Source of the DNA: Escherichia coli
GTDB lineage: Bacteria; Pseudomonadota; Gammaproteobacteria; Enterobacterales; Enterobacteriaceae
Strand: one strand, 5' to 3'
Assembly: GCF_048403405.1 (NCBI RefSeq)
Contig: NZ_CP183129.1
Length of the DNA: 64,000 nucleotides
The position numbers and the translations under genes are program-made. This document shows, piece after piece, positions 3,149 to 63,773 of this stretch (position 1 is the stretch's first letter; each line of letters opens with the position of its first letter). Under the pieces are notes generated by a model. It searched no databases and was not told where the DNA came from. It saw only the letters and a program-made list of their open reading frames with translations.

Positions 3149-4353
3149 TAATCCACCAATAATTCCAGCGCGCGGTCAACGGCATTCACCAGCGCATCCA
3201 CATCACTCTTTGTATTATATGGCGCAAAAGAGGCGCGCAGTGTGCCGGTTACGCCTAATTCTGCCAGTAGCGGCTGAGCGCAATGCTGCCCGGCGCGCAG
3301 GGCAATACCGTACTCCGCCAGCAGCGTCACCATATCGCTGTGATGAACGCCAGCAAAATCAAAGGCCAGCAGGCTGGAATCCTGGCAGCGAAATGAGCGG
3401 AAGCCAGGACGTTTTGCCAGCGCATCTTCCGCCAGCGTTGCTAAGCTACGGCTCCAGCTTTCTGCCTGGTTGATATCGTAATCTGCCAGCCATTCCAGCG
3501 CCGCGCTTAATCCTATGACACCAGCGACATTTGGCGTTCCGGCTTCCAGTTTCCACGGCGCAGATTGAGTCGTGAAGCCGTCAAAACTCACTTCGTGAAT
3601 CATTTTGCCGCCACCCAGCCAGGGTGACATCGCTTCCAGCAGTTCTGATTTGCCATACAGCACGCCGATACCCGTCGGGCCATACAGTTTGTGACCAGAG
3701 AAAGCATAGAAATCAATATCCAGTTGCTGAACATCTGCGGGGACATGCACCGCCCCCTGAGCACCATCAACCATCACCACCATCCCGGCTGAATGAGCAA
3801 AGGTAATCGCTCGCGCCAGATCCGGGCAACCGCCAGTGACGTTCGACATTTGTCCCAGAGCAAGAATTCGACTACGAGGTGTGATCAGTTCTGGCAACAA
3901 ATCGACATCCGGCAGTCGCTGCGCATTAAGCGGCAATTTCACCACTTTGGCTCCAGTTTGTTGGGCGACCATCAGCCAGGGGACGAGGTTGGCGTGGTGT
4001 TCTGCCACGCTGACAATAATCTCATCGCCCGGTTGCAGACGTGGACGCGCATAGCATTGTGCCACCATGTTGATGGATTCAGTGGTGCCGCGCGTCCAGA
4101 CGATAGTTTTGTCATCTGGTGCATTCAGTAATTGCGCCACTTTCTCTCGTGCAGCTTCATAACGCGCGGTCAGGCGTTGGGCTTCGGCAAACTGGCTGCG
4201 ATGGACGTTTCCGGCGCTCAGGCTGTAAAACTGTCGGGTGGCTTCAACCACGGCTTCAGGTTTAAGCGCGGTCGCGGCGCTGTCGAGATAGACGCCCGCA
4301 TCCTGAAGTGCGGGAAACTGGGCGCGAAACTGTGCGGGATTAAAAACGTTCAT
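3148..4353 (-). CDS. csdA: Cysteine desulfurase / sulfinate desulfinase CsdA (PLP-dependent)
   Basis: 401 aa starting [16 protein letters not shown]; PLP-lysine motif SGHKLYGP; start set at the internal ATG (4353) preceded by RBS gaggag rather than the TTG track start at 4389. Confidence 0.9.
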
Positions 4354-5122: not shown

Positions 5123-6040
5123 ATGTCTAAACGATTACCACCGCTAAATGCCTTACGAGTTTTTGATGCCGCAGCACGCCATTTAAGTTTCACTCGCGCA
5201 GCAGAAGAGCTTTTTGTGACCCAGGCCGCAGTAAGTCATCAAATCAAGTCTCTTGAGGATTTTCTGGGGCTAAAACTGTTCCGCCGCCGTAATCGTTCAC
5301 TCCTGCTGACCGAGGAAGGTCAAAGCTATTTCCTCGATATCAAAGAGATATTTTCGCAATTAACCGAAGCGACGCGTAAACTCCAGGCCCGTAGCGCCAA
5401 GGGGGCGTTGACGGTCAGTTTACTCCCCAGTTTCGCCATTCATTGGTTGGTTCCGCGACTTTCCAGCTTTAATTCAGCTTATCCGGGAATTGACGTTCGA
5501 ATCCAGGCGGTTGATCGTCAGGAAGATAAGCTGGCGGATGATGTTGATGTGGCGATATTTTATGGTCGGGGCAACTGGCCGGGGCTACGGGTGGAAAAAC
5601 TTTACGCCGAATATTTATTGCCGGTGTGTTCGCCGCTACTGCTGACTGGCGAAAAACCCTTGAAGACCCCGGAAGATCTGGCTAAACATACGTTATTACA
5701 TGATGCGTCACGCCGTGACTGGCAGACATATACTCGCCAATTGGGGTTAAATCATATCAACGTTCAGCAAGGGCCAATTTTTAGCCATAGCGCCATGGTG
5801 CTGCAAGCGGCTATTCACGGGCAGGGAGTGGCGCTGGCAAATAACGTGATGGCGCAATCTGAAATCGAGGCCGGACGTCTTGTTTGCCCGTTTAATGATG
5901 TTCTGGTCAGTAAAAATGCTTTTTATCTGGTTTGTCATGACAGTCAGGCAGAACTGGGTAAAATAGCCGCCTTTCGTCAATGGATCCTGGCGAAAGCCGC
6001 TGCTGAACAAGAAAAATTCCGCTTTCGTTATGAACAATAA
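5123..6040 (+). CDS. gcvA: LysR-family transcriptional regulator of the glycine cleavage system
   Basis: 305 aa MSKRLPPLNALRVFDAAARHLSFTRAAEEL... matches GcvA; N-terminal HTH. Confidence 0.95.
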   Translation: MSKRLPPLNALRVFDAAARHLSFTRAAEELFVTQAAVSHQIKSLEDFLGLKLFRRRNRSLLLTEEGQSYFLDIKEIFSQLTEATRKLQARSAKGALTVSLLPSFAIHWLVPRLSSFNSAYPGIDVRIQAVDRQEDKLADDVDVAIFYGRGNWPGLRVEKLYAEYLLPVCSPLLLTGEKPLKTPEDLAKHTLLHDASRRDWQTYTRQLGLNHINVQQGPIFSHSAMVLQAAIHGQGVALANNVMAQSEIEAGRLVCPFNDVLVSKNAFYLVCHDSQAELGKIAAFRQWILAKAAAEQEKFRFRYEQ

Positions 6041-6058
6041 TTTACGTAGGGTACGACC

Positions 6059-6454
6059 ATGACCAGCCGTTTTATGCTGATTTTTGCCGCCATTAGCGGC
6101 TTCATTTTTGTGGCTCTGGGCGCTTTTGGCGCGCATGTGTTAAGTAAAACCATGGGGGCCGTTGAGATGGGCTGGATCCAGACCGGTCTCGAATACCAGG
6201 CGTTCCACACGCTGGCGATCTTAGGTCTGGCGGTGGCAATGCAGCGTCGCATCAGTATCTGGTTTTACTGGAGTAGCGTTTTCCTCGCGTTAGGCACGGT
6301 GCTGTTCAGCGGCAGCCTTTATTGCCTGGCGCTGTCCCATCTGCGTTTGTGGGCATTTGTCACACCGGTTGGCGGCGTGAGCTTCCTCGCGGGCTGGGCG
6401 TTAATGTTAGTTGGTGCTATCCGTTTAAAGCGCAAGGGCGTAAGTCATGAATAA
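6059..6454 (+). CDS. ygdD: Inner membrane protein YgdD (DUF423)
   Basis: 131 aa, four hydrophobic segments; position and sequence match YgdD. Confidence 0.85.
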
Positions 6455-7547
6455 GGTTGTATTGCTGTGCCGTCCGGGCTTTGAAAAAGAGTGCGCCGCA
6501 GAAATTACCGATAAAGCCGGCCAGCGGGAAATTTTCGGTTTTGCCCGCGTGAAAGAGAATGCGGGTTATGTCATTTATGAATGTTATCAACCTGATGATG
6601 GCGATAAGTTAATCCGTGAGCTGCCGTTCAGTTCATTAATTTTTGCCCGCCAGTGGTTTGTGGTGGGGGAACTCCTGCAGCATTTGCCGCCAGAAGATCG
6701 TATTACTCCCATTGTCGGCATGTTACAGGGCGTAGTAGAGAAGGGCGGTGAACTGCGTGTTGAAGTTGCCGATACCAACGAAAGCAAAGAGTTGCTGAAA
6801 TTCTGCCGTAAATTCACCGTGCCGCTACGCGCTGCCTTGCGCGATGCGGGTGTGCTGGCGAACTATGAAACGCCGAAGCGTCCGGTTGTACATGTATTCT
6901 TTATTGCACCAGGCTGCTGCTATACCGGTTACTCATACAGCAACAATAATTCGCTGTTCTATATGGGCATTCCGCGCCTGAAATTTCCGGCAGATGCGCC
7001 GAGTCGTTCCACGCTTAAACTGGAAGAGGCATTTCATGTGTTTATTCCTGCGGATGAGTGGGATGAACGCCTGGCGAACGGGATGTGGGCGGTGGATTTA
7101 GGCGCTTGCCCAGGCGGCTGGACCTACCAACTGGTGAAGCGCAACATGTGGGTTTATTCCGTCGACAACGGCCCGATGGCGCAAAGTCTGATGGATACCG
7201 GACAGGTGACGTGGCTGCGGGAAGACGGTTTCAAATTCCGTCCGACACGCAGCAATATCTCCTGGATGGTATGCGATATGGTTGAAAAACCGGCGAAAGT
7301 TGCGGCATTGATGGCGCAGTGGCTGGTTAATGGCTGGTGCCGTGAAACCATTTTCAACCTCAAACTGCCGATGAAAAAACGCTACGAAGAAGTGTCACAC
7401 AATCTGGCGTATATTCAGGCACAGCTTGATGAACATGGCATAAATGCTCAGATTCAGGCGCGGCAGTTGTATCACGATCGCGAAGAAGTGACGGTGCACG
7501 TCCGCCGTATCTGGGCTGCGGTGGGTGGTCGTCGCGACGAGCGATAA
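6447..7547 (+). CDS. rlmM: 23S rRNA (cytidine2498-2'-O)-methyltransferase
   Basis: 366 aa [20 protein letters not shown]... matches RlmM (YgdE); overlaps ygdD by 8 nt. Confidence 0.92.
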
Positions 7548-39721: not shown

Positions 39722-41035
<1,314 letters not shown>

Positions 41036-41060
41036 GTCTGACTTTATCTGATTTAAAAAT

Positions 41061-41085
41061 GCCAGCCTTCGGGCTGGCATTTTTT
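41061..41085. terminator. Bidirectional intrinsic terminator between convergent eno and ygcG
   Basis: gccagcc ttcg ggctggc hairpin flanked by A-rich run upstream and T run downstream (T/U run on both strands). Confidence 0.8.
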
Positions 41086-41094
41086 ATGGTTGAG

Positions 41095-41967
41095 TTACCA
41101 GCGACCGGACGCGCCGCCACCGCCAGAAGAACCGCCCCCGCCGCTAAATCCGCCGCCACTTGAGCCGCCACCGGAACCGCTGTTGTCTGAATGATAACTT
41201 CTACCAGATGCTTTTTTCTGAAGTACACATAAACAGGTAAAGACCATAATGGTGGTGAAAGTAAAAAAGAAGAAAAATACAGCAATGGAAAAAGTTTTAT
41301 CGGAGAACAGGAATAAATCTAAAAGATAGATTGCTGAAATACAGACACTGCTTTTACATGCGCGACAAAAATTACTGCCTTGATGAAAAAACCAGAAAGG
41401 GAAGAACATCACTGCAAATACCCAAAAAATAGCAAAGTAGTAATGATCGCTGGAAGACGCTGATTCACTTTCTGAAGGATTAGCCGAATATTGGTGTTGT
41501 GAAGTGAGTTGGTTATTCAAAGCGATTATAGCTAACTCTAATCCCTTAGCTAATTTTTGTTGTTTAAATGCGGGTATCATGTTGCTACGGATGATATCTC
41601 CAGCCAGAGCATCGGTTACCTTTTCTTCCAGCCCATAACCTACCTGGATGCGGACAGTACGATCCGACCAGGCAACAATGATCAGTATCCCATCATTGCG
41701 TTTGGCATCTCCTAAACGCCAATTGTTAAAAACCCTTGTAGCATATTGTTCAATTGTCTCGTCTTTGGTTGTGGGAATAATTAATACAGCAATTTGTACT
41801 TGGGTATTATTGAAAATAGATTCTAACTTCCGCGTCAGTTCTTTCTTTTCTTGTGAGTTTAAGCTACTCGTAAGATCCGTAACTTGTTGCTGTAATTGTG
41901 GGACAATAGTTGGTTGGGCTGCAACAAAGGAACACACGAATGTGAATATTAGTATGAAATAGCGCAT
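41095..41967 (-). CDS. ygcG: TPM-domain (TLP18.3/Psb32/MOLO-1 phosphatase-like) membrane protein YgcG
   Basis: Signal peptide [21 protein letters not shown] domain, TM segment, Gly/Ser-rich C-terminal tail ([27 protein letters not shown]); start set at the ATG at 41967 (290 aa), the track start at 42012 is also an ATG; AT-rich coding sequence. Confidence 0.8.
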
Positions 41968-42260
41968 TATAAATGTCCCATTAAAGCTGGATAAATAAAT
42001 TGACGGCGACATCGGTAATTTGAGATTCGTTATAATTAAAAACGAACACAGAAAAAATAAGTATAATTTTGGTGAATGTTTTTGACATGATTAAATCCAT
42101 TTGCTTTATTTATTTCTGACATAATACGTTACTCCCTTTTATTATTAACGATCTGTTTCTCATTTTTCTTTAAACCTGCCTGTAACAGAATGTTAATAAG
42201 ACATGATTGTTGCGGCAGGATCTGCAATAATTAACAATTATCCACTTCACAGAGAATGCT

Positions 42261-42932
42261 ATGCAGTACCCGATTAACGAGATGTTCCAGACCCTGCAAG
42301 GTGAGGGTTACTTTACCGGCGTCCCCGCCATTTTTATTCGTTTACAGGGATGCCCGGTTGGCTGTGCCTGGTGCGACACCAAACACACCTGGGAAAAGCT
42401 TGAGGATCGGGAAGTCTCCCTTTTCAGCATTCTGGCGAAGACCAAAGAGAGTGATAAGTGGGGGGCGGCGAGCAGTGAAGACTTGCTGGCTGTCATTGGT
42501 CGCCAGGGATACACCGCGCGGCATGTGGTGATTACGGGTGGTGAGCCTTGCATTCATGATTTGCTGCCACTGACTGACCTGCTCGAAAAGAACGGTTTTA
42601 GCTGCCAGATCGAAACCAGTGGTACTCATGAAGTACGCTGCACACCGAATACCTGGGTTACCGTATCGCCAAAGCTGAACATGCGCGGCGGCTATGAAGT
42701 GTTGTCACAGGCACTGGAGCGAGCCAACGAAATCAAGCATCCAGTGGGACGCGTGCGTGATATTGAAGCACTGGATGAACTACTGGCAACACTGACCGAT
42801 GATAAACCGCGAGTCATTGCGCTGCAGCCGATTAGCCAAAAGGAAGATGCTACTCGTTTATGTATCGATACGTGCATTGCGCGCAACTGGCGTTTGTCGA
42901 TGCAAACACATAAATATTTAAATATTGCCTGA
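42261..42932 (+). CDS. queE: 7-carboxy-7-deazaguanine synthase (radical SAM)
   Basis: 223 aa MQYPINEMFQTLQGEGYFTGVPAIFIRLQGCPVGCAWCDTKHTW... (CxxxCxxC-variant radical SAM motif). Confidence 0.95.
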   Translation: MQYPINEMFQTLQGEGYFTGVPAIFIRLQGCPVGCAWCDTKHTWEKLEDREVSLFSILAKTKESDKWGAASSEDLLAVIGRQGYTARHVVITGGEPCIHDLLPLTDLLEKNGFSCQIETSGTHEVRCTPNTWVTVSPKLNMRGGYEVLSQALERANEIKHPVGRVRDIEALDELLATLTDDKPRVIALQPISQKEDATRLCIDTCIARNWRLSMQTHKYLNIA

Positions 42933-43270: not shown

Positions 43271-44031
43271 GTGTTCCCCGCGCCAGCGGGGATAAACCGC
43301 GTTCAGCGTTGCTGGGCTGCGCAATGGACTGGTGTTCCCCGCGCCAGCGGGGATAAACCGCGGAGTTTTCACGGAACGCACAGCGAATTATGGTGTTCCC
43401 CGCGCCAGCGGGGATAAACCGCCGATAAATTTTCGCCCCGTTTCCAGCGCCGCGTGTTCCCCGCGCCAGCGGGGATAAACCGTTCAAACTGTAGGGATCG
43501 GCAATGGTGCCGAAGTGTTCCCCGCGCCAGCGGGGATAAACCGGGGCATTAGAATAACTTAAATGGAAAAAGAAAGTGTTCCCCGCGCCAGCGGGGATAA
43601 ACCGTCAGCCAGCACATAATTTTTATAGTCAGTATTGTGTTCCCCGCGCCAGCGGGGATAAACCGAAAGAGGTTATCGAGCGATATAACGCGTCCATGTG
43701 TTCCCCGCGCCAGCGGGGATAAACCGGTGCCTGGCGTCCATCTATTCACATGCCGCGCGTGTTCCCCGCGCCAGCGGGGATAAACCGTATTGGCGACGAT
43801 GGCATACCAGGACTACTCCGTGTTCCCCGCGCCAGCGGGGATAAACCGGCTCAGCGTCTGCTCTGGTGCCTCGCCCGTGAGTGTTCCCCGCGCCAGCGGG
43901 GATAAACCGGACCGTTACGGGCGCGTTCTTGGACTTGTTGAGTGTTCCCCACATCAGCGGGGATAAACCGGACACAGAGCGCCGCTATAGCGCCTATGCC
44001 AAGAGTTTCCCGCACCAGCGGGAATAAACCA
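43271..44031 (+). CRISPR. Type I-E CRISPR array: 13 repeats of 29 bp, 12 spacers of 32 bp (the queE-ygcE array of E. coli)
   Basis: Repeat GTGTTCCCCGCGCCAGCGGGGATAAACCG at 43271, 43332, 43393, 43454, 43515, 43576, 43637, 43698, 43759, 43820, 43881, then degenerate copies at 43942 (gtgttccccacatcagcggggataaaccg) and 44003 (gagtttcccgcaccagcgggaataaacca); exact 61-bp period. Confidence 0.97.
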
Positions 44032-44500
44032 CCATATAACCCGTTATCTCTTTCTCAAGTTTTTATATTAGCTGTACTTGTAATAAGCAACATATCCACG
44101 TAACACCTCATGTTCAAAATAGTTCTCCATGTCAGAGAAGTTCACAATTATCGATACAAAAAATTAAATTTAATCAAAGTGTTATTTGTATGATTCTTAA
44201 ATCGTTAAGAAATTTTAATCTATTATTTTTTTAATATTGAATTAATGCCTGTTAATTTTTTCTTTAGAATAACAGTGTGTTTTTTAAGCTTGTTATTCAT
44301 TGATTAAGTAATAAATCTGGAAGTTTGTCTTTGTTTTGAGGCTAATGAGTGGTTTTACATAACCGTCTCTATAGGCTGTTGATGAATAGTTCTTATGAAT
44401 AAAGATATCCAGTTCATACTTTAAATGAAAATTGATAAAGTACGGTTTGCGTTGTCTTTTATTCTAAAGACATCGAGTGTAGTTAATATTCCTTGTAAAA

Positions 44501-44623
44501 ACAGGGATAAACCGAACTAGTTAAAGTTTTTATTATGTTCCCTGCATCAGCGGGGATAAACCGGACTTGTTATCATTTTTTAAGTTGTCGAACTTATGTT
44601 CCCCACGTCAGCGGGGATAACCA
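44501..44623 (+). CRISPR. Decayed satellite CRISPR array (truncated repeat, two degenerate repeats, one 32-bp spacer)
   Basis: Partial repeat cagggataaaccg (ends 44514), degenerate repeats atgttccctgcatcagcggggataaaccg (44535-44563) and atgttccccacgtcagcggggataacc (44596-44623) separated by a 32-bp spacer; preceded by about 470 bp of AT-rich leader-like sequence. Confidence 0.8.
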
Positions 44624-44669
44624 TTCAGGTATGTTCAGGCCGGGCAGTTTCCCGCCCGGTCTTCCTCAC

Positions 44670-61115: not shown

Positions 61116-63773
61116 GTGACTTTCTTTGATTTCTGGGGAAAAACCCGACGTGGCGAGAAAGAGGGTGGTGACGACTATCACCTTCTTTGCTGGCATTCGC
61201 TGGATGTAGCCGCGATGGGCTATTTAATGGTTAAAAGCAATTGCTTCGGGCTGGCTGACTATTTTCGTCAACTAGGTTTCGCTGATACGGAGCAGGCAGC
61301 ACAATTTTTCGCCTGGTTGCTGTGCTGGCACGATACTGGAAAATTTGCCCGCTCTTTTCAGCAACTTTACCTGCACCCGCAACTCAAGGTTCCGGAAAGC
61401 TCTAGAAAAAATTACGAAAAAATCTCTCATTCAACGCTGGGTTACTGGTTGTGGCACCATTATTTAAGTGAATGCGAAGAATTGCTTCCTTCATCTTCAC
61501 TCTCTCCGCGCAAACTTAAACGGGTGATAGAGATGTGGATGCCCATGACTACCGGGCATCATGGTCGCCCGCCTGACCGTATGGATGAACTGGATAATTT
61601 TCTGCCTGAAGACAAAGCCGCCGCGCGAGATTTTCTCCTTGTAATCAAGGCACTGTTTCCTCTCATCGAGATCCCCGCATTCTGGGATGATGACGATGGC
61701 GTTGAACTTTTAAAACAACTTTCCTGGTATATCTCTGCAACTGTCGTACTTGCAGACTGGACGGGATCGTCAACGCGATTTTTTCCACGCGTCGCGCAGG
61801 CAATGGATATTGAAGATTACTGGCAGAAGGCTTTAGTTCAGGCTCAAAACGCATTAACCGTCTTTCCTCCAAAAGCACAAACCGCGCCTTTCACCGGAAT
61901 TAATACGCTGTTTCCTTTTATTGAGCACCCGACACCGTTACAGCAAAAGGTGCTGGATCTGGATATCAGCCAGCCTGGGCCACAGTTATTTATTCTGGAG
62001 GATGTGACTGGCGCAGGTAAAACAGAAGCGGCGCTTATCCTGGCCCACAGGTTGATGGCTGCGGGGAAAGCACAGGGTTTGTTTTTTGGCCTGCCAACAA
62101 TGGCAACGGCCAATGCCATGTACGATCGGCTGGTAAAAACCTGGCTTGCTTTCTATTCGCCAGAATCCCGCCCCAGCCTGGTGCTGGCACACAGTGCCCG
62201 CACATTAATGGACCGCTTTAATGAATCACTCTGGTCCGGTGATTTAGTCGGGTCAGAAGAACCGGATGAACAAGCGTTCAGTCAGGGATGTGCGGCCTGG
62301 TTTGCCGACAGTAACAAGAAGGCGTTGCTGGCTGAAATTGGCGTCGGCACGCTGGATCAGGCGATGATGGCGGTGATGCCGTTTAAACATAATAATCTGC
62401 GGCTTCTGGGACTGAGTAACAAAATCCTGCTGGCTGATGAGATCCATGCCTGTGACGCTTACATGTCGTGCATTCTTGAAGGATTGATTGAGCGGCAGGC
62501 GCGTGGCGGAAACAGCGTTATTTTGCTTTCTGCCACGTTATCTCAACAGCAGCGCGACAAACTCGTTGCTGCCTTTGCGCGTGGTGCAGAGGGTCAGCAA
62601 GAAGCTCCGTTCCTGGAAAAGGATGATTACCCCTGGCTGACGCACGTTACGAAATCGGATGTGCATTCACACCGGGTAGCAACGCGCAAAGACGTTGAGC
62701 GTAGCGTGAGCGTGGGTTGGCTTCATAGCGAACAAGAGTGTATTGCGCGTATCGAATCGGCGGTAAGTCAGGGGAAATGCATCGCCTGGATCCGGAATTC
62801 TGTCGATGATGCTATTAAAGTTCATCGTCAGTTGCTTGCCCGCGGCGTCATTCCTGCTTCCAGCCTTTCTCTGTTTCATAGCCGCTTTGCTTTTAGCGAT
62901 CGCCAGCGAATTGAAACGGAAACGCTGGCACGCTTCGGTAAAGAAGATAGCTCACAGCGTGCCGGAAAAGTCCTCATTTGTACTCAGGTCTTAGAGTCGA
63001 GCGTTGATTGCGATATGGACGAAATGATTTCCGACCTGGCCCCTGTTGATTTGCTGATCCAGCGAGCGGGGCGATTACAGCGGCATATCCGCGATATTAA
63101 TGGTCAGTTAAAGCGTGACGGAAAAGACGAGCGTTCTCCTCCTGAATTGCTGATTCTGGCCCCCGTCTGGGACGACGCTCCAGGTGACGAATGGTTCGGC
63201 AGTGCCATGCGTAACAGTGCATATGTCTATCCCGATCATGGACGAATCTGGCTGACGCAGCGTGTACTGCGTGAGCAAGGCGCGATTCAAATGCCACACG
63301 CAGCCCGCCTTCTTATTGAATCAGTCTACGGTGAGGACGTGGTAATGCCGGAAGGATTTGCCCGCAGCGAGCAGGAACAAGTGGGCAAATATTACTGCGA
63401 TCGCGCAATGGCTAAAAAGTTTGTGCTGAACTTCAGGCCCGGCTATGCCGCCAATATCAACGATTACCTCCCGGAAAAGCTGTCGACACGTCTGGCTGAG
63501 GAGTCTGTTTCCCTGTGGCTGGCTACCTGTATTGACGGTGTGGTGAAGCCTTATGCCACCGGTGCTCACGCATGGGAAATGAGCGTTGTCAGAGTGCGTC
63601 GAAGCTGGTGGAAAAAACATTGCGATGAGTTTTCTTTACTGGAAGGGGAAGCGTTCAGGCAGTGGTGCGTTGAACAGCGGCAAGATCCGGAGATGGCAAA
63701 TGTGATTTTAGTTACCGATGACGAAAGTTGCGGGTATTCGGCTAGGGAGGGATTGATTGGTAAGGTTGATTGA
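61116..63773 (+). CDS. cas3: Cas3 (type I-E CRISPR-associated HD nuclease / SF2 helicase), non-K-12 allele
   Basis: 885 aa; HD motifs (HSLDVAA, WHDTGKF), helicase motif I TGAGKTEA, motif II DEIH, motif III SATL, motif VI QRAGRLQRH; GTG start; sits directly downstream of cysH as in E. coli; N-terminal sequence differs from the K-12 Cas3 I recall (MEPFKYICHYWGKS...). Confidence 0.9.
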   Translation: MTFFDFWGKTRRGEKEGGDDYHLLCWHSLDVAAMGYLMVKSNCFGLADYFRQLGFADTEQAAQFFAWLLCWHDTGKFARSFQQLYLHPQLKVPESSRKNYEKISHSTLGYWLWHHYLSECEELLPSSSLSPRKLKRVIEMWMPMTTGHHGRPPDRMDELDNFLPEDKAAARDFLLVIKALFPLIEIPAFWDDDDGVELLKQLSWYISATVVLADWTGSSTRFFPRVAQAMDIEDYWQKALVQAQNALTVFPPKAQTAPFTGINTLFPFIEHPTPLQQKVLDLDISQPGPQLFILEDVTGAGKTEAALILAHRLMAAGKAQGLFFGLPTMATANAMYDRLVKTWLAFYSPESRPSLVLAHSARTLMDRFNESLWSGDLVGSEEPDEQAFSQGCAAWFADSNKKALLAEIGVGTLDQAMMAVMPFKHNNLRLLGLSNKILLADEIHACDAYMSCILEGLIERQARGGNSVILLSATLSQQQRDKLVAAFARGAEGQQEAPFLEKDDYPWLTHVTKSDVHSHRVATRKDVERSVSVGWLHSEQECIARIESAVSQGKCIAWIRNSVDDAIKVHRQLLARGVIPASSLSLFHSRFAFSDRQRIETETLARFGKEDSSQRAGKVLICTQVLESSVDCDMDEMISDLAPVDLLIQRAGRLQRHIRDINGQLKRDGKDERSPPELLILAPVWDDAPGDEWFGSAMRNSAYVYPDHGRIWLTQRVLREQGAIQMPHAARLLIESVYGEDVVMPEGFARSEQEQVGKYYCDRAMAKKFVLNFRPGYAANINDYLPEKLSTRLAEESVSLWLATCIDGVVKPYATGAHAWEMSVVRVRRSWWKKHCDEFSLLEGEAFRQWCVEQRQDPEMANVILVTDDESCGYSAREGLIGKVD

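Follow-up and report, generated by a model that had tools for sequence, protein, structure and literature searches.

Between eno and queE on the chromosome of Escherichia coli lies ygcG, a gene whose composition departs from that of its neighbours and whose protein product ends in a run of glycine and serine. The locus raises two questions, namely where the AT-richness of ygcG comes from and whether the Gly/Ser tail is incidental low complexity or a feature of the protein family. The window analyzed here is a stretch of 64,000 nucleotides of E. coli DNA (RefSeq assembly GCF_048403405.1, contig NZ_CP183129.1). E. coli strain TUM14771 matches bases 40900-42400 of the window at 100% identity, and of 5426 complete E. 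coli genomes, 5425 contain a match to this interval. The genes of the neighbourhood follow the order mazG, pyrG, eno, ygcG, a frameshifted small ORF, queE, a CRISPR array, ygcE and yqcE. The features used throughout the text are the following:

39737-41035, plus strand: eno
41055-41085, both strands: bidirectional intrinsic terminator serving eno (plus) and ygcG (minus), stem AAAAATGCCAGCC-TTCG-GGCTGGCATTTTT
41095-41967, minus strand: ygcG, 'type A' allele, TPM-domain inner-membrane protein, 290 codons plus stop
41098-41181, minus strand: Gly/Ser tail of YgcG, residues 263-290
41218-41445, minus strand: membrane module of YgcG, residues 175-250, with three predicted TM helices and the lowest GC within the coding sequence
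41515-41883, minus strand: TPM domain of YgcG (Pfam PF04536), residues 29-151, predicted periplasmic
41914-41967, minus strand: predicted Sec signal peptide of YgcG, residues 1-18, with a hydrophobic segment at 1-17
41981-42122, minus strand: yqcG, putative remnant of the lemA 5' end, frameshifted according to RefSeq, with an intact 35-codon ORF from the ATG at 42088
42123-42260, no strand assigned: divergent yqcG/queE control region
42261-42932, plus strand: queE
43271-44031: CRISPR array, 13 repeats
44486-44628: degenerate CRISPR mini-array

Composition of ygcG and its surroundings

ygcG is a known, annotated gene. The name and the coordinates 41095-41967 proposed in an earlier note on this DNA are correct, as RefSeq calls ygcG at the same coordinates in the identical strain TUM14771, and the start of the protein (MR...) is common to all homologues. 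The promoter/terminator scan overlooked the terminator shared by eno and ygcG; folding confirmed it as a 13-bp perfect stem of -20 to -22 kcal/mol on either strand with a T-run on each strand. No Rfam family matched between 40900 and 44800 at gathering thresholds.

The earlier note had described ygcG as markedly AT-richer than its neighbours, and this holds true: the GC content of ygcG is 0.414 as compared to 0.503 for eno and 0.518 for queE. Both its GC and its GC3 (0.375) are lower than in any other long ORF of the window. Those 45 ORFs have a mean GC of 0.519 (sd 0.027) and a mean GC3 of 0.555 (sd 0.049), which places ygcG at z = -3.96 and z = -3.71, respectively. Codon usage likewise separates ygcG from the other window genes, its distance from the window pool (0.433) exceeding the maximum of size-matched genes (0.388). 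The classical rare-codon fraction is unexceptional (z = 1.0), and the codon anomaly is therefore a general preference for A- or T-ending codons and not a loading with rare codons. GC skew, which the note had also proposed to calculate, showed nothing specific at ygcG across the window.

From its amino acids and the window-average synonymous usage, ygcG is expected to have a GC content of 0.483, and the observed value lies 0.068 below this expectation (z = -3.8). About one third of the GC deficit is due to amino-acid composition (the protein is rich in Phe, Ile, Asn and Lys) and about two thirds to synonymous codon choice. Within the gene, GC amounts to 0.398 in the TPM domain, 0.338 in the TM module and 0.738 in the DNA of the Gly/Ser tail; owing to this GC-rich tail, the remainder of ygcG is more AT-extreme than the gene average shows.

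The note had also regarded the stretch from ygcG to the CRISPR array as one compositionally distinct block. Along 41.1-44.6 kb, GC is 0.414 in ygcG, 0.300 in the yqcG remnant with the adjoining intergenic DNA, 0.518 in queE, 0.290 in the gap between queE and the CRISPR array, 0.595 in the array and 0.324 in leader and intergenic DNA. Hence, ygcG and the non-coding gaps are indeed AT-rich, whereas queE is normal and the CRISPR array is GC-rich, and the description as one block holds only in part.

ygcG, yqcG and the lemA-TPM operon

In E. coli O157:H7, the eno-queE interval contains lemA and three TPM genes of 224, 382 and 304 codons. lemA and three TPM genes are also found in E. coli strain WP2-W18-ESBL-08, in E. 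albertii and in E. whittamii, and lemA with two TPM genes occupies the slot in two further Escherichia species (L010 and L012) and in Entomohabitans. Kosakonia and Enterobacter sp. Bisph1 carry one TPM gene beside queE and no detectable lemA; a solitary TPM gene thus also occurs outside E. coli. The phylogenetic distribution of ygcG, another check named in the note, thus comprises TPM genes in the eno-queE slot of Escherichia species, Entomohabitans, Kosakonia and Enterobacter sp. Bisph1; the genome scan for this slot used two restrictive peptide patterns, and non-detection in Salmonella, Klebsiella and other genera does not equal absence. The wider distribution was taken from a search of 50% representatives together with the genome scan, the first protein search having been filled with E. 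coli variants.

A census of the 5426 complete E. coli genomes assigned 3924 to the short form seen in the window and 1103 to the long form (at least 80% of the four-gene form). The remaining genomes contain other rearrangements, including an IS1 insertion, truncations and replacement by other islands. Across many phyla, 61 of 80 homologous loci have lemA upstream of the TPM gene and in the same orientation, and an orphan TPM gene is therefore the exception. In the window, an intact lemA directly upstream of ygcG is absent and a remnant of about 35 codons is found in its place.

The long operons of O157:H7, E. albertii and E. whittamii share slot, orientation, promoter-proximal DNA and tail with the ygcG locus, and differ from it by an intact lemA and two additional TPM genes. 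Window positions 41000-41176, which comprise the 3' end of eno, the terminator and the Gly/Ser tail, match the end of the last TPM gene of O157 at 93% identity, a gene of which ygcG appears to be the diverged counterpart. At the other end, window positions 42054-42300 align with the lemA 5' end, the promoter region and the queE 5' end of the long form. The 35-codon ORF starting with the ATG at 42088 is collinear and ungapped with LemA residues 1-30 (MLRIFIVIIFIVNLSGCGYNDIQTYDEQVN), and its spacing from the conserved promoter DNA equals that of lemA. The protein score of this alignment was reached by 3 of 2000 shuffles and the DNA score by 2 of 1000. The LSGC lipobox is gone from the remnant; in Enterobacterales and Pseudomonas, LemA carries this lipobox, which indicates that LemA is a periplasmic lipoprotein there. 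ygcG starts 13 nt after the stop of the remnant. Relative to K-12, yqcG of the window has one extra A in an A-run, which breaks the longer K-12 frame. In the NCBI annotation, YqcG goes by the name of a cell envelope stress response protein. Judged from these alignments, yqcG is most simply the remnant of the lemA 5' end, and ygcG and yqcG together would be the remainder of a four-gene lemA-TPM operon, with ygcG as an orphan devoid of its usual partner.

queE blocks cell division when PhoQ is strongly activated. Phosphorylated PhoP was reported to bind within the 300 bp upstream of queE and within the next 300 bp, and cells deleted for yqcG show strong derepression of queE and form filaments (PMC4974570). 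For sigma-S, a ChIP peak was located between queE and ygcG (PMC4447067). In K-12, the queE/ygcG and ygcE/queE intergenic regions are 'promoter islands' bound by H-NS (PMC3661553); these entries of the Shavkunov/Ozoline set are the K-12 equivalents of approximately 42.0-42.3 kb of the window (queE/ygcG) and of the CRISPR leader (ygcE/queE), and their classification is based on K-12 data. In a simple scan of our own, sigma-70 promoter-like sites were not enriched in this region (5 as compared to 3.5 ± 1.6 in shuffles). Transposon insertions in yqcG are rare (PMC5821084), which could be due to protection by a bound protein such as H-NS. From this literature, the AT-rich remnant DNA appears to double as a silencer and PhoP-responsive control region for queE. 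In the window strain, ygcG itself is without its partners and probably poorly expressed.

Domain, topology and tail of YgcG

The TPM domain of YgcG was recognized by PF04536 with 123.8 bits (cutoff 22.1, E = 5.6e-36) over profile positions 1-123 of 125. An AF2 model of the protein was built from 70 diverse homologues and reached a mean pLDDT of 79.8, with values above 90 over residues 29-159. The alpha/beta TPM fold, consisting of a central four-stranded sheet and flanking helices, was recovered in the model, which further contains helices at residues 174-193, 199-221 and 226-252 followed by a disordered stretch at 252-274. A short basic linker connects the TM helices to the Gly/Ser tail.

Foldseek returned BA41 (5anp, target TM-score 0.89, rmsd 1.9 A), 7tbr (0.88) and 3pvh (0.78), and in addition PG0361 (2kw7), TLP18.3, Psb32 and a subunit of the mycobacterial respiratory supercomplex. 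The nearest solved relatives by sequence (phmmer against the PDB) are BA41 (5ANP, E = 1e-23), Rhom172_1776 (7TBR) and PG0361 (2KW7). BA41 and BA42 (4OA3) of Bizionia argentinensis, Rhom172_1776 and PG0361 have the same domain by sequence and predicted fold (target TM-score 0.79-0.90), their structures being those of the soluble domains only. For some of the solved TPM proteins, weak phosphatase or ATPase/ADPase activities and metal sites were reported (bioRxiv 10.1101/2024.10.28.620569), though not for YgcG. Psb32/TLP18.3, which act in photosystem II assembly and repair, share with YgcG an extracytoplasmic TPM domain and a C-terminal TM anchor. Psb32 proper, however, has no Gly tail and one TM helix, whereas YgcG has a Gly/Ser tail and three predicted TM helices, and E. 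coli lacks photosystem II. Assignment of YgcG as a Psb32 equivalog was rejected (NF047379, 36.7 bits against a cutoff of 160). PF25184, a family of YxzE-like putative bacteriocins, did not match YgcG; in the operon paralogues and the Yersinia homologue it scored 15-32 bits, below the cutoff of 40, over the Ser/Gly-rich end, a likely compositional effect. The membrane module of YgcG shares the loop motif P-x-W-x-F-x-x-x-S/N-N-F-x-R-A-x-K-S with a Brenneria protein (P0126) and, more loosely, with a Yersinia protein (P0136).

A Lys or Arg is present within the first eight residues in 60 of 70 homologues, and cleavage of the signal peptide would occur after VAA. Based on this Sec-like N-terminus, the TPM domain is predicted to reside in the periplasm, comparable to the lumen-facing plant and cyanobacterial relatives. 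Crude counts across the homologues gave one TM in 39, three in 14 and two in 12 cases, and are too rough to prove an odd number. Lys and Arg are more frequent after the last TM helix than before the first (2.73 as compared to 1.56, p = 8.5e-5), a positive-inside bias that is weak in the single-TM homologues. Signal peptide, mostly odd TM counts and positive-inside bias together suggest that the tail is probably cytoplasmic. In the AF2 model, the last ten residues have a pLDDT of 84 and form a beta-strand with the TPM domain, whereas the membrane module and tail modeled alone gave a pLDDT of 57 and no strand. AF2 therefore docks the C-terminal peptide onto the TPM domain, and this modeled contact is at odds with a predicted topology that places the two on opposite sides of the membrane.

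Gly and Ser account for 25 of the 28 residues (89%) between 263 and 290. The earlier note's description of an approximately 30-residue Gly/Ser tail was accurate in this respect, but three TM helices and not a single TM segment are predicted to precede it. Its description of the tail as low complexity did not survive the comparison with 80 homologues drawn from one-genome-per-species contigs. The C-terminal motif F[SG]GGGG[SG]xGGGGASGxW (type FSGGGGSxGGGGASGxW-COOH) is present in 69 of these, and the 11 proteins that lack it are short or truncated. Homologues with this tail come from Gamma-, Beta- and Alphaproteobacteria, Bacteroidota, Ignavibacteriales, Elusimicrobia and a Firmicutes-like MAG. 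The alignment of 70 sequences has 14 invariant columns, of which 8 fall within the tail, the terminal Trp included. The three paralogues of the long operon have near-identical tails ending in [A/S]SGRW that are encoded by different codons, which points to selection on the peptide and not to recent gene conversion. By these comparisons, the tail is a conserved signature and the most conserved part of the family rather than incidental low complexity. [quoted passage not shown] PDB matches of YgcG to single-chain MHC constructs and to a GPCR were discarded as artefacts of synthetic Gly/Ser linkers.

Origin of the type-A gene and its place in the family

K-12 ygcG was listed before as alien according to the Nakamura, Lawrence-Ochman and Price predictions (PMC3661553, Table 1), and the compositional anomaly of the gene, its assignment to horizontal transfer and its binding by H-NS are already published. 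E. coli YgcG proteins are mosaics of module types A (window, K-12) and B (O157); three modules recombine, namely residues 1-70, the TPM core and the membrane module, and the tail does not vary. In strain WP2-W18, a B-type N-terminus is fused to an A-type remainder with the switch at around codons 59-80, near a conserved IEQYATRVF motif. In the GTDB reference E. coli (L008), one B-type and one A-like gene stand in tandem, a hint that the two types may be paralogues and not alleles. All other Escherichia species that were sampled had the type-B long form only.

The TPM gene of the window and its O157 counterpart share 45% protein identity and differ in their TM module. Over codons 1-150, the two genes have a pS of 0.74, which is saturated, and a dN of 0.40, as compared to a flanking dS of 0.030 in eno, 0.120 in queE and 0.204 in ygcE between the same two strains. 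Between the window and K-12, dN/dS is 0.30 for ygcG and 0-0.03 for eno, pyrG and queE, and type-A alleles differ by 4-6% within E. coli; ygcG is still under purifying selection. Identity to the long haplotype is approximately 99% over 42169-42260 (the 91 nt next to queE) and approximately 65% beyond, the drop being located near 42169. The 5' segment of type A (41793-42055) had no detectable DNA match in long-form loci and was seen in the short form only. Assigning the type-A 5' end to TPM1 or TPM3 failed, since over residues 1-70 the two identities (37% and 44%) do not allow a decision, and a 13-nt spacer of equal length ahead of the start codon is unconvincing by itself.

We consider it likely that ygcG encodes a membrane protein of the TPM or 'Psb32-like' (YgcG) family and is the reduced remnant of a lemA-TPM1-TPM2-TPM3 operon, belonging to an anciently diverged type-A lineage. 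This lineage would represent a lost-and-found paralogue or else a segment brought in through homologous recombination at conserved flanks.

Alternatively, the AT-richness may have arisen in place, after a deletion of lemA and two TPM genes had left ygcG as an orphan under relaxed selection, AT-biased mutation and possibly H-NS silencing. The raised dN/dS of ygcG relative to its neighbours, the extreme AT-richness of remnant and intergenic DNA (GC 0.30), the frameshift in yqcG and the differences among type-A alleles are all in line with such a course of events, as is the finding that the lemA/TPM operon is AT-shifted in Escherichia and not in other genera. A saturated pS next to flanking dS values of 0.03-0.20 is, however, too much change to be explained by drift after the deletion within the age of E. 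coli. Furthermore, a dN/dS of 0.30 still denotes purifying selection, and a TM-module motif retained in common with Brenneria, and more loosely with Yersinia, is not that of a decayed sequence. Taken together, we regard an origin in place as unlikely.

Still less probable is the acquisition of ygcG, queE and the CRISPR arrays (41.1-44.6 kb) as one old island, with the AT-richness as the unameliorated signature of a donor. ygcG and three non-coding stretches do have a GC content of 0.29-0.41, published composition methods and GIST flag the neighbourhood, H-NS binds there, and the whole stretch from eno to queD is rearranged in many strains. Against this stands queE, which is normal in GC and GC3 and whose protein, encoded at this position in different genera, is 90% identical between them. 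The CRISPR array has a high GC content, and AT-rich CRISPR leaders and intergenic DNA are normal features. The lemA/TPM family is found in this slot in at least five genera, and outside Escherichia its GC equals or exceeds that of the flanks; occupation of the slot in several genera argues that the family is old at this position, and on this distribution it would be ancestral between eno and queE. The ORFs of 41-44.7 kb include no mobility genes, and neither an integrase, a transposase, a tRNA nor direct-repeat boundaries were found in this stretch of the window. Searches of plasmids and phages yielded only distant TPM proteins, the best true matches being at most 49% identical and none a close homologue; the E. 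coli "plasmid" matches to ygcG were chromosomes of 4.8-4.9 Mb. Among 1.84 billion cluster representatives there was no relative at 50-83% identity, the next matches below the E. coli cluster (83%) being at 42-47%, and no donor can therefore be named. The older horizontal acquisition of the ygcG-CRISPR block put forward in the earlier note is favoured, as far as ygcG is concerned, by the compositional anomaly, the saturated pS, the sharp identity breaks such as that near 42169, the restriction of the other sampled Escherichia species to the type-B long form and the published composition-based calls with H-NS binding in K-12, but it does not extend to queE, an ordinary core gene, nor does it fit a family long resident in the slot or the lack of mobility genes.

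That the low GC is a mere consequence of amino-acid composition and the tail a functionless slippage run is refuted for both parts and hardly credible: the expected GC of 0.483 does fall short of the mean of the window (0.523, z = -1.7), Phe is frequent in the TM module and the tail is close enough to synthetic (G4S)n linkers to match them in the PDB, but two thirds of the deficit are synonymous and the tail motif stays unchanged across Proteobacteria, Bacteroidota, Ignavibacteria and Elusimicrobia, is written in different codons in the paralogues and always has the terminal Trp.

Returning to the reading of ygcG as a remnant of the lemA-TPM operon, the protein would begin with a Sec signal peptide, followed by a periplasmic TPM domain, three TM helices, a basic linker and a tail ending in GGGGxxGGGGASGxW. 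In most bacteria, proteins of the YgcG type are encoded directly downstream of lemA. Experiments on YgcG itself were not found in the searchable literature, so its function was inferred from family and context. LemA and the TPM protein most likely form an envelope-facing accessory or stress module, given that TPM folds serve as auxiliary subunits of membrane complexes (Psb32 on photosystem II, and the match to the supercomplex subunit), that a Flavobacterium mutant under envelope stress induces lemA together with a TPM gene, and that a sigma-S ChIP peak is found in the queE/ygcG intergenic region. At the window locus, lemA and two TPM genes would have been lost, with one TPM gene and about 30 lemA codons retained. 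The AT-richness, which resides mostly at synonymous sites, would then mark the type-A lineage, be it a paralogue or a recombinational import, and not recent decay.

As a more tentative extension, to which we attach clearly less belief, the C-terminal peptide FSGGGGSxGGGGASGxW-COOH may be the working part of an uncharacterised pan-bacterial LemA/TPM envelope module, acting either as a strand that plugs into the TPM domain or as a cytoplasmic docking peptide. K-12-type strains would then possess a translated fossil of this module, YqcG would be the leftover signal-peptide end of LemA, and the remnant DNA might have been co-opted as an H-NS- and PhoP-responsive silencer of queE.

Taken alone, the finding of the earlier note matters little, as ygcG is annotated, its composition and H-NS association are published and the tail was noticed before. 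The present analysis adds the reading of ygcG and yqcG as a lemA-TPM remnant and of the tail as the most conserved element of the family. Since lemA and two of the three partner genes appear to be lost, K-12 would be a poor model for the TPM family, and a long-form strain such as O157:H7 would be better suited. YqcG as a gene remnant would also bear on the interpretation of 'new' small proteins. Finally, the tail is a short motif of extreme conservation that lends itself to experiments, within a family of more than 20,000 sequence clusters that has no agreed function.

Terminator and Gly/Ser tail of ygcG

eno and ygcG are convergent and have a terminator in common, a stem-loop that was not picked up by the consensus terminator scan. 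The tail of YgcG is encoded close by.

41055-41085, both strands: bidirectional terminator, perfect 13-bp stem-loop with T-runs on each strand
41098-41181: YgcG tail, resembling synthetic (GGGGS)n linkers

A PDB sequence search returned dozens of engineered single-chain MHC constructs. The natural tail draws these matches through its likeness to the synthetic linkers, and automated annotation should discount them as false. In the AF2 models (m11f9086b5bbc and m0a624aca634f; residues 281-290) the C-terminal GGGGASGRW forms a beta-strand with confidence only in the presence of the TPM domain. The modelled strand conflicts with the predicted membrane topology, which would place the tail and the TPM domain on opposite sides.

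Decay of the short and long forms

Compared with K-12, yqcG, the lemA remnant, has a frameshift in the window, the run GTCAAAAAC containing one A more. What stays open is a shorter ORF of 35 codons, whose ATG at 42088 is homologous in position to the start codon of lemA.

41981-42122, minus strand: yqcG
L002 (O157:H7) 3512-3744: tail-encoding DNA of the first TPM gene, directly upstream of the next gene

In O157:H7, which carries the long form, annotation shows TPM gene number one cut short at 224 codons; the sequence for its conserved tail nevertheless persists. Decay is therefore under way in the long form, too, in some lineages.

Neighbourhood of ygcG and lemA-TPM pairs

A CRISPR array and a mini-array lie in the window, with cas3 at its end, 17 kb away.

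43271-44031: type I-E-style CRISPR array, 13 repeats, 61-nt period
44486-44628: degenerate mini-array, two to three repeats, about 500 bp beyond the main array
61215-63773: cas3, encoding Cas3 (HD and helicase)

The ygcG neighbourhood is a rearrangement hot spot (rearranged strain loci L004 8675-8893, L005 1-4971, L006 7605-8561 and L007 6545-7788).

In certain strains, CRISPR and ygcE are replaced after queE by a LacI-family regulator and sucrose-6-phosphate hydrolase; in one strain eno-ygcG has given way to a PTS/MurR/ManNAc-6-P epimerase island, which carries a remnant of IS4, and in further strains a truncated ygcE adjoins queD.

L088 (Yersinia pseudotuberculosis) 5308-6843: lemA-TPM pair within a type VI secretion cluster

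The TPM protein of this pair and YgcG have the membrane-module motif in common. The pair is flanked on one side by VgrG, an uncharacterised 740-residue protein and an FGE-sulfatase, and on the other by PAAR and TssM. Its location inside a type VI secretion cluster suggests that T6SS cargo is a travelling companion of some lemA-TPM pairs.
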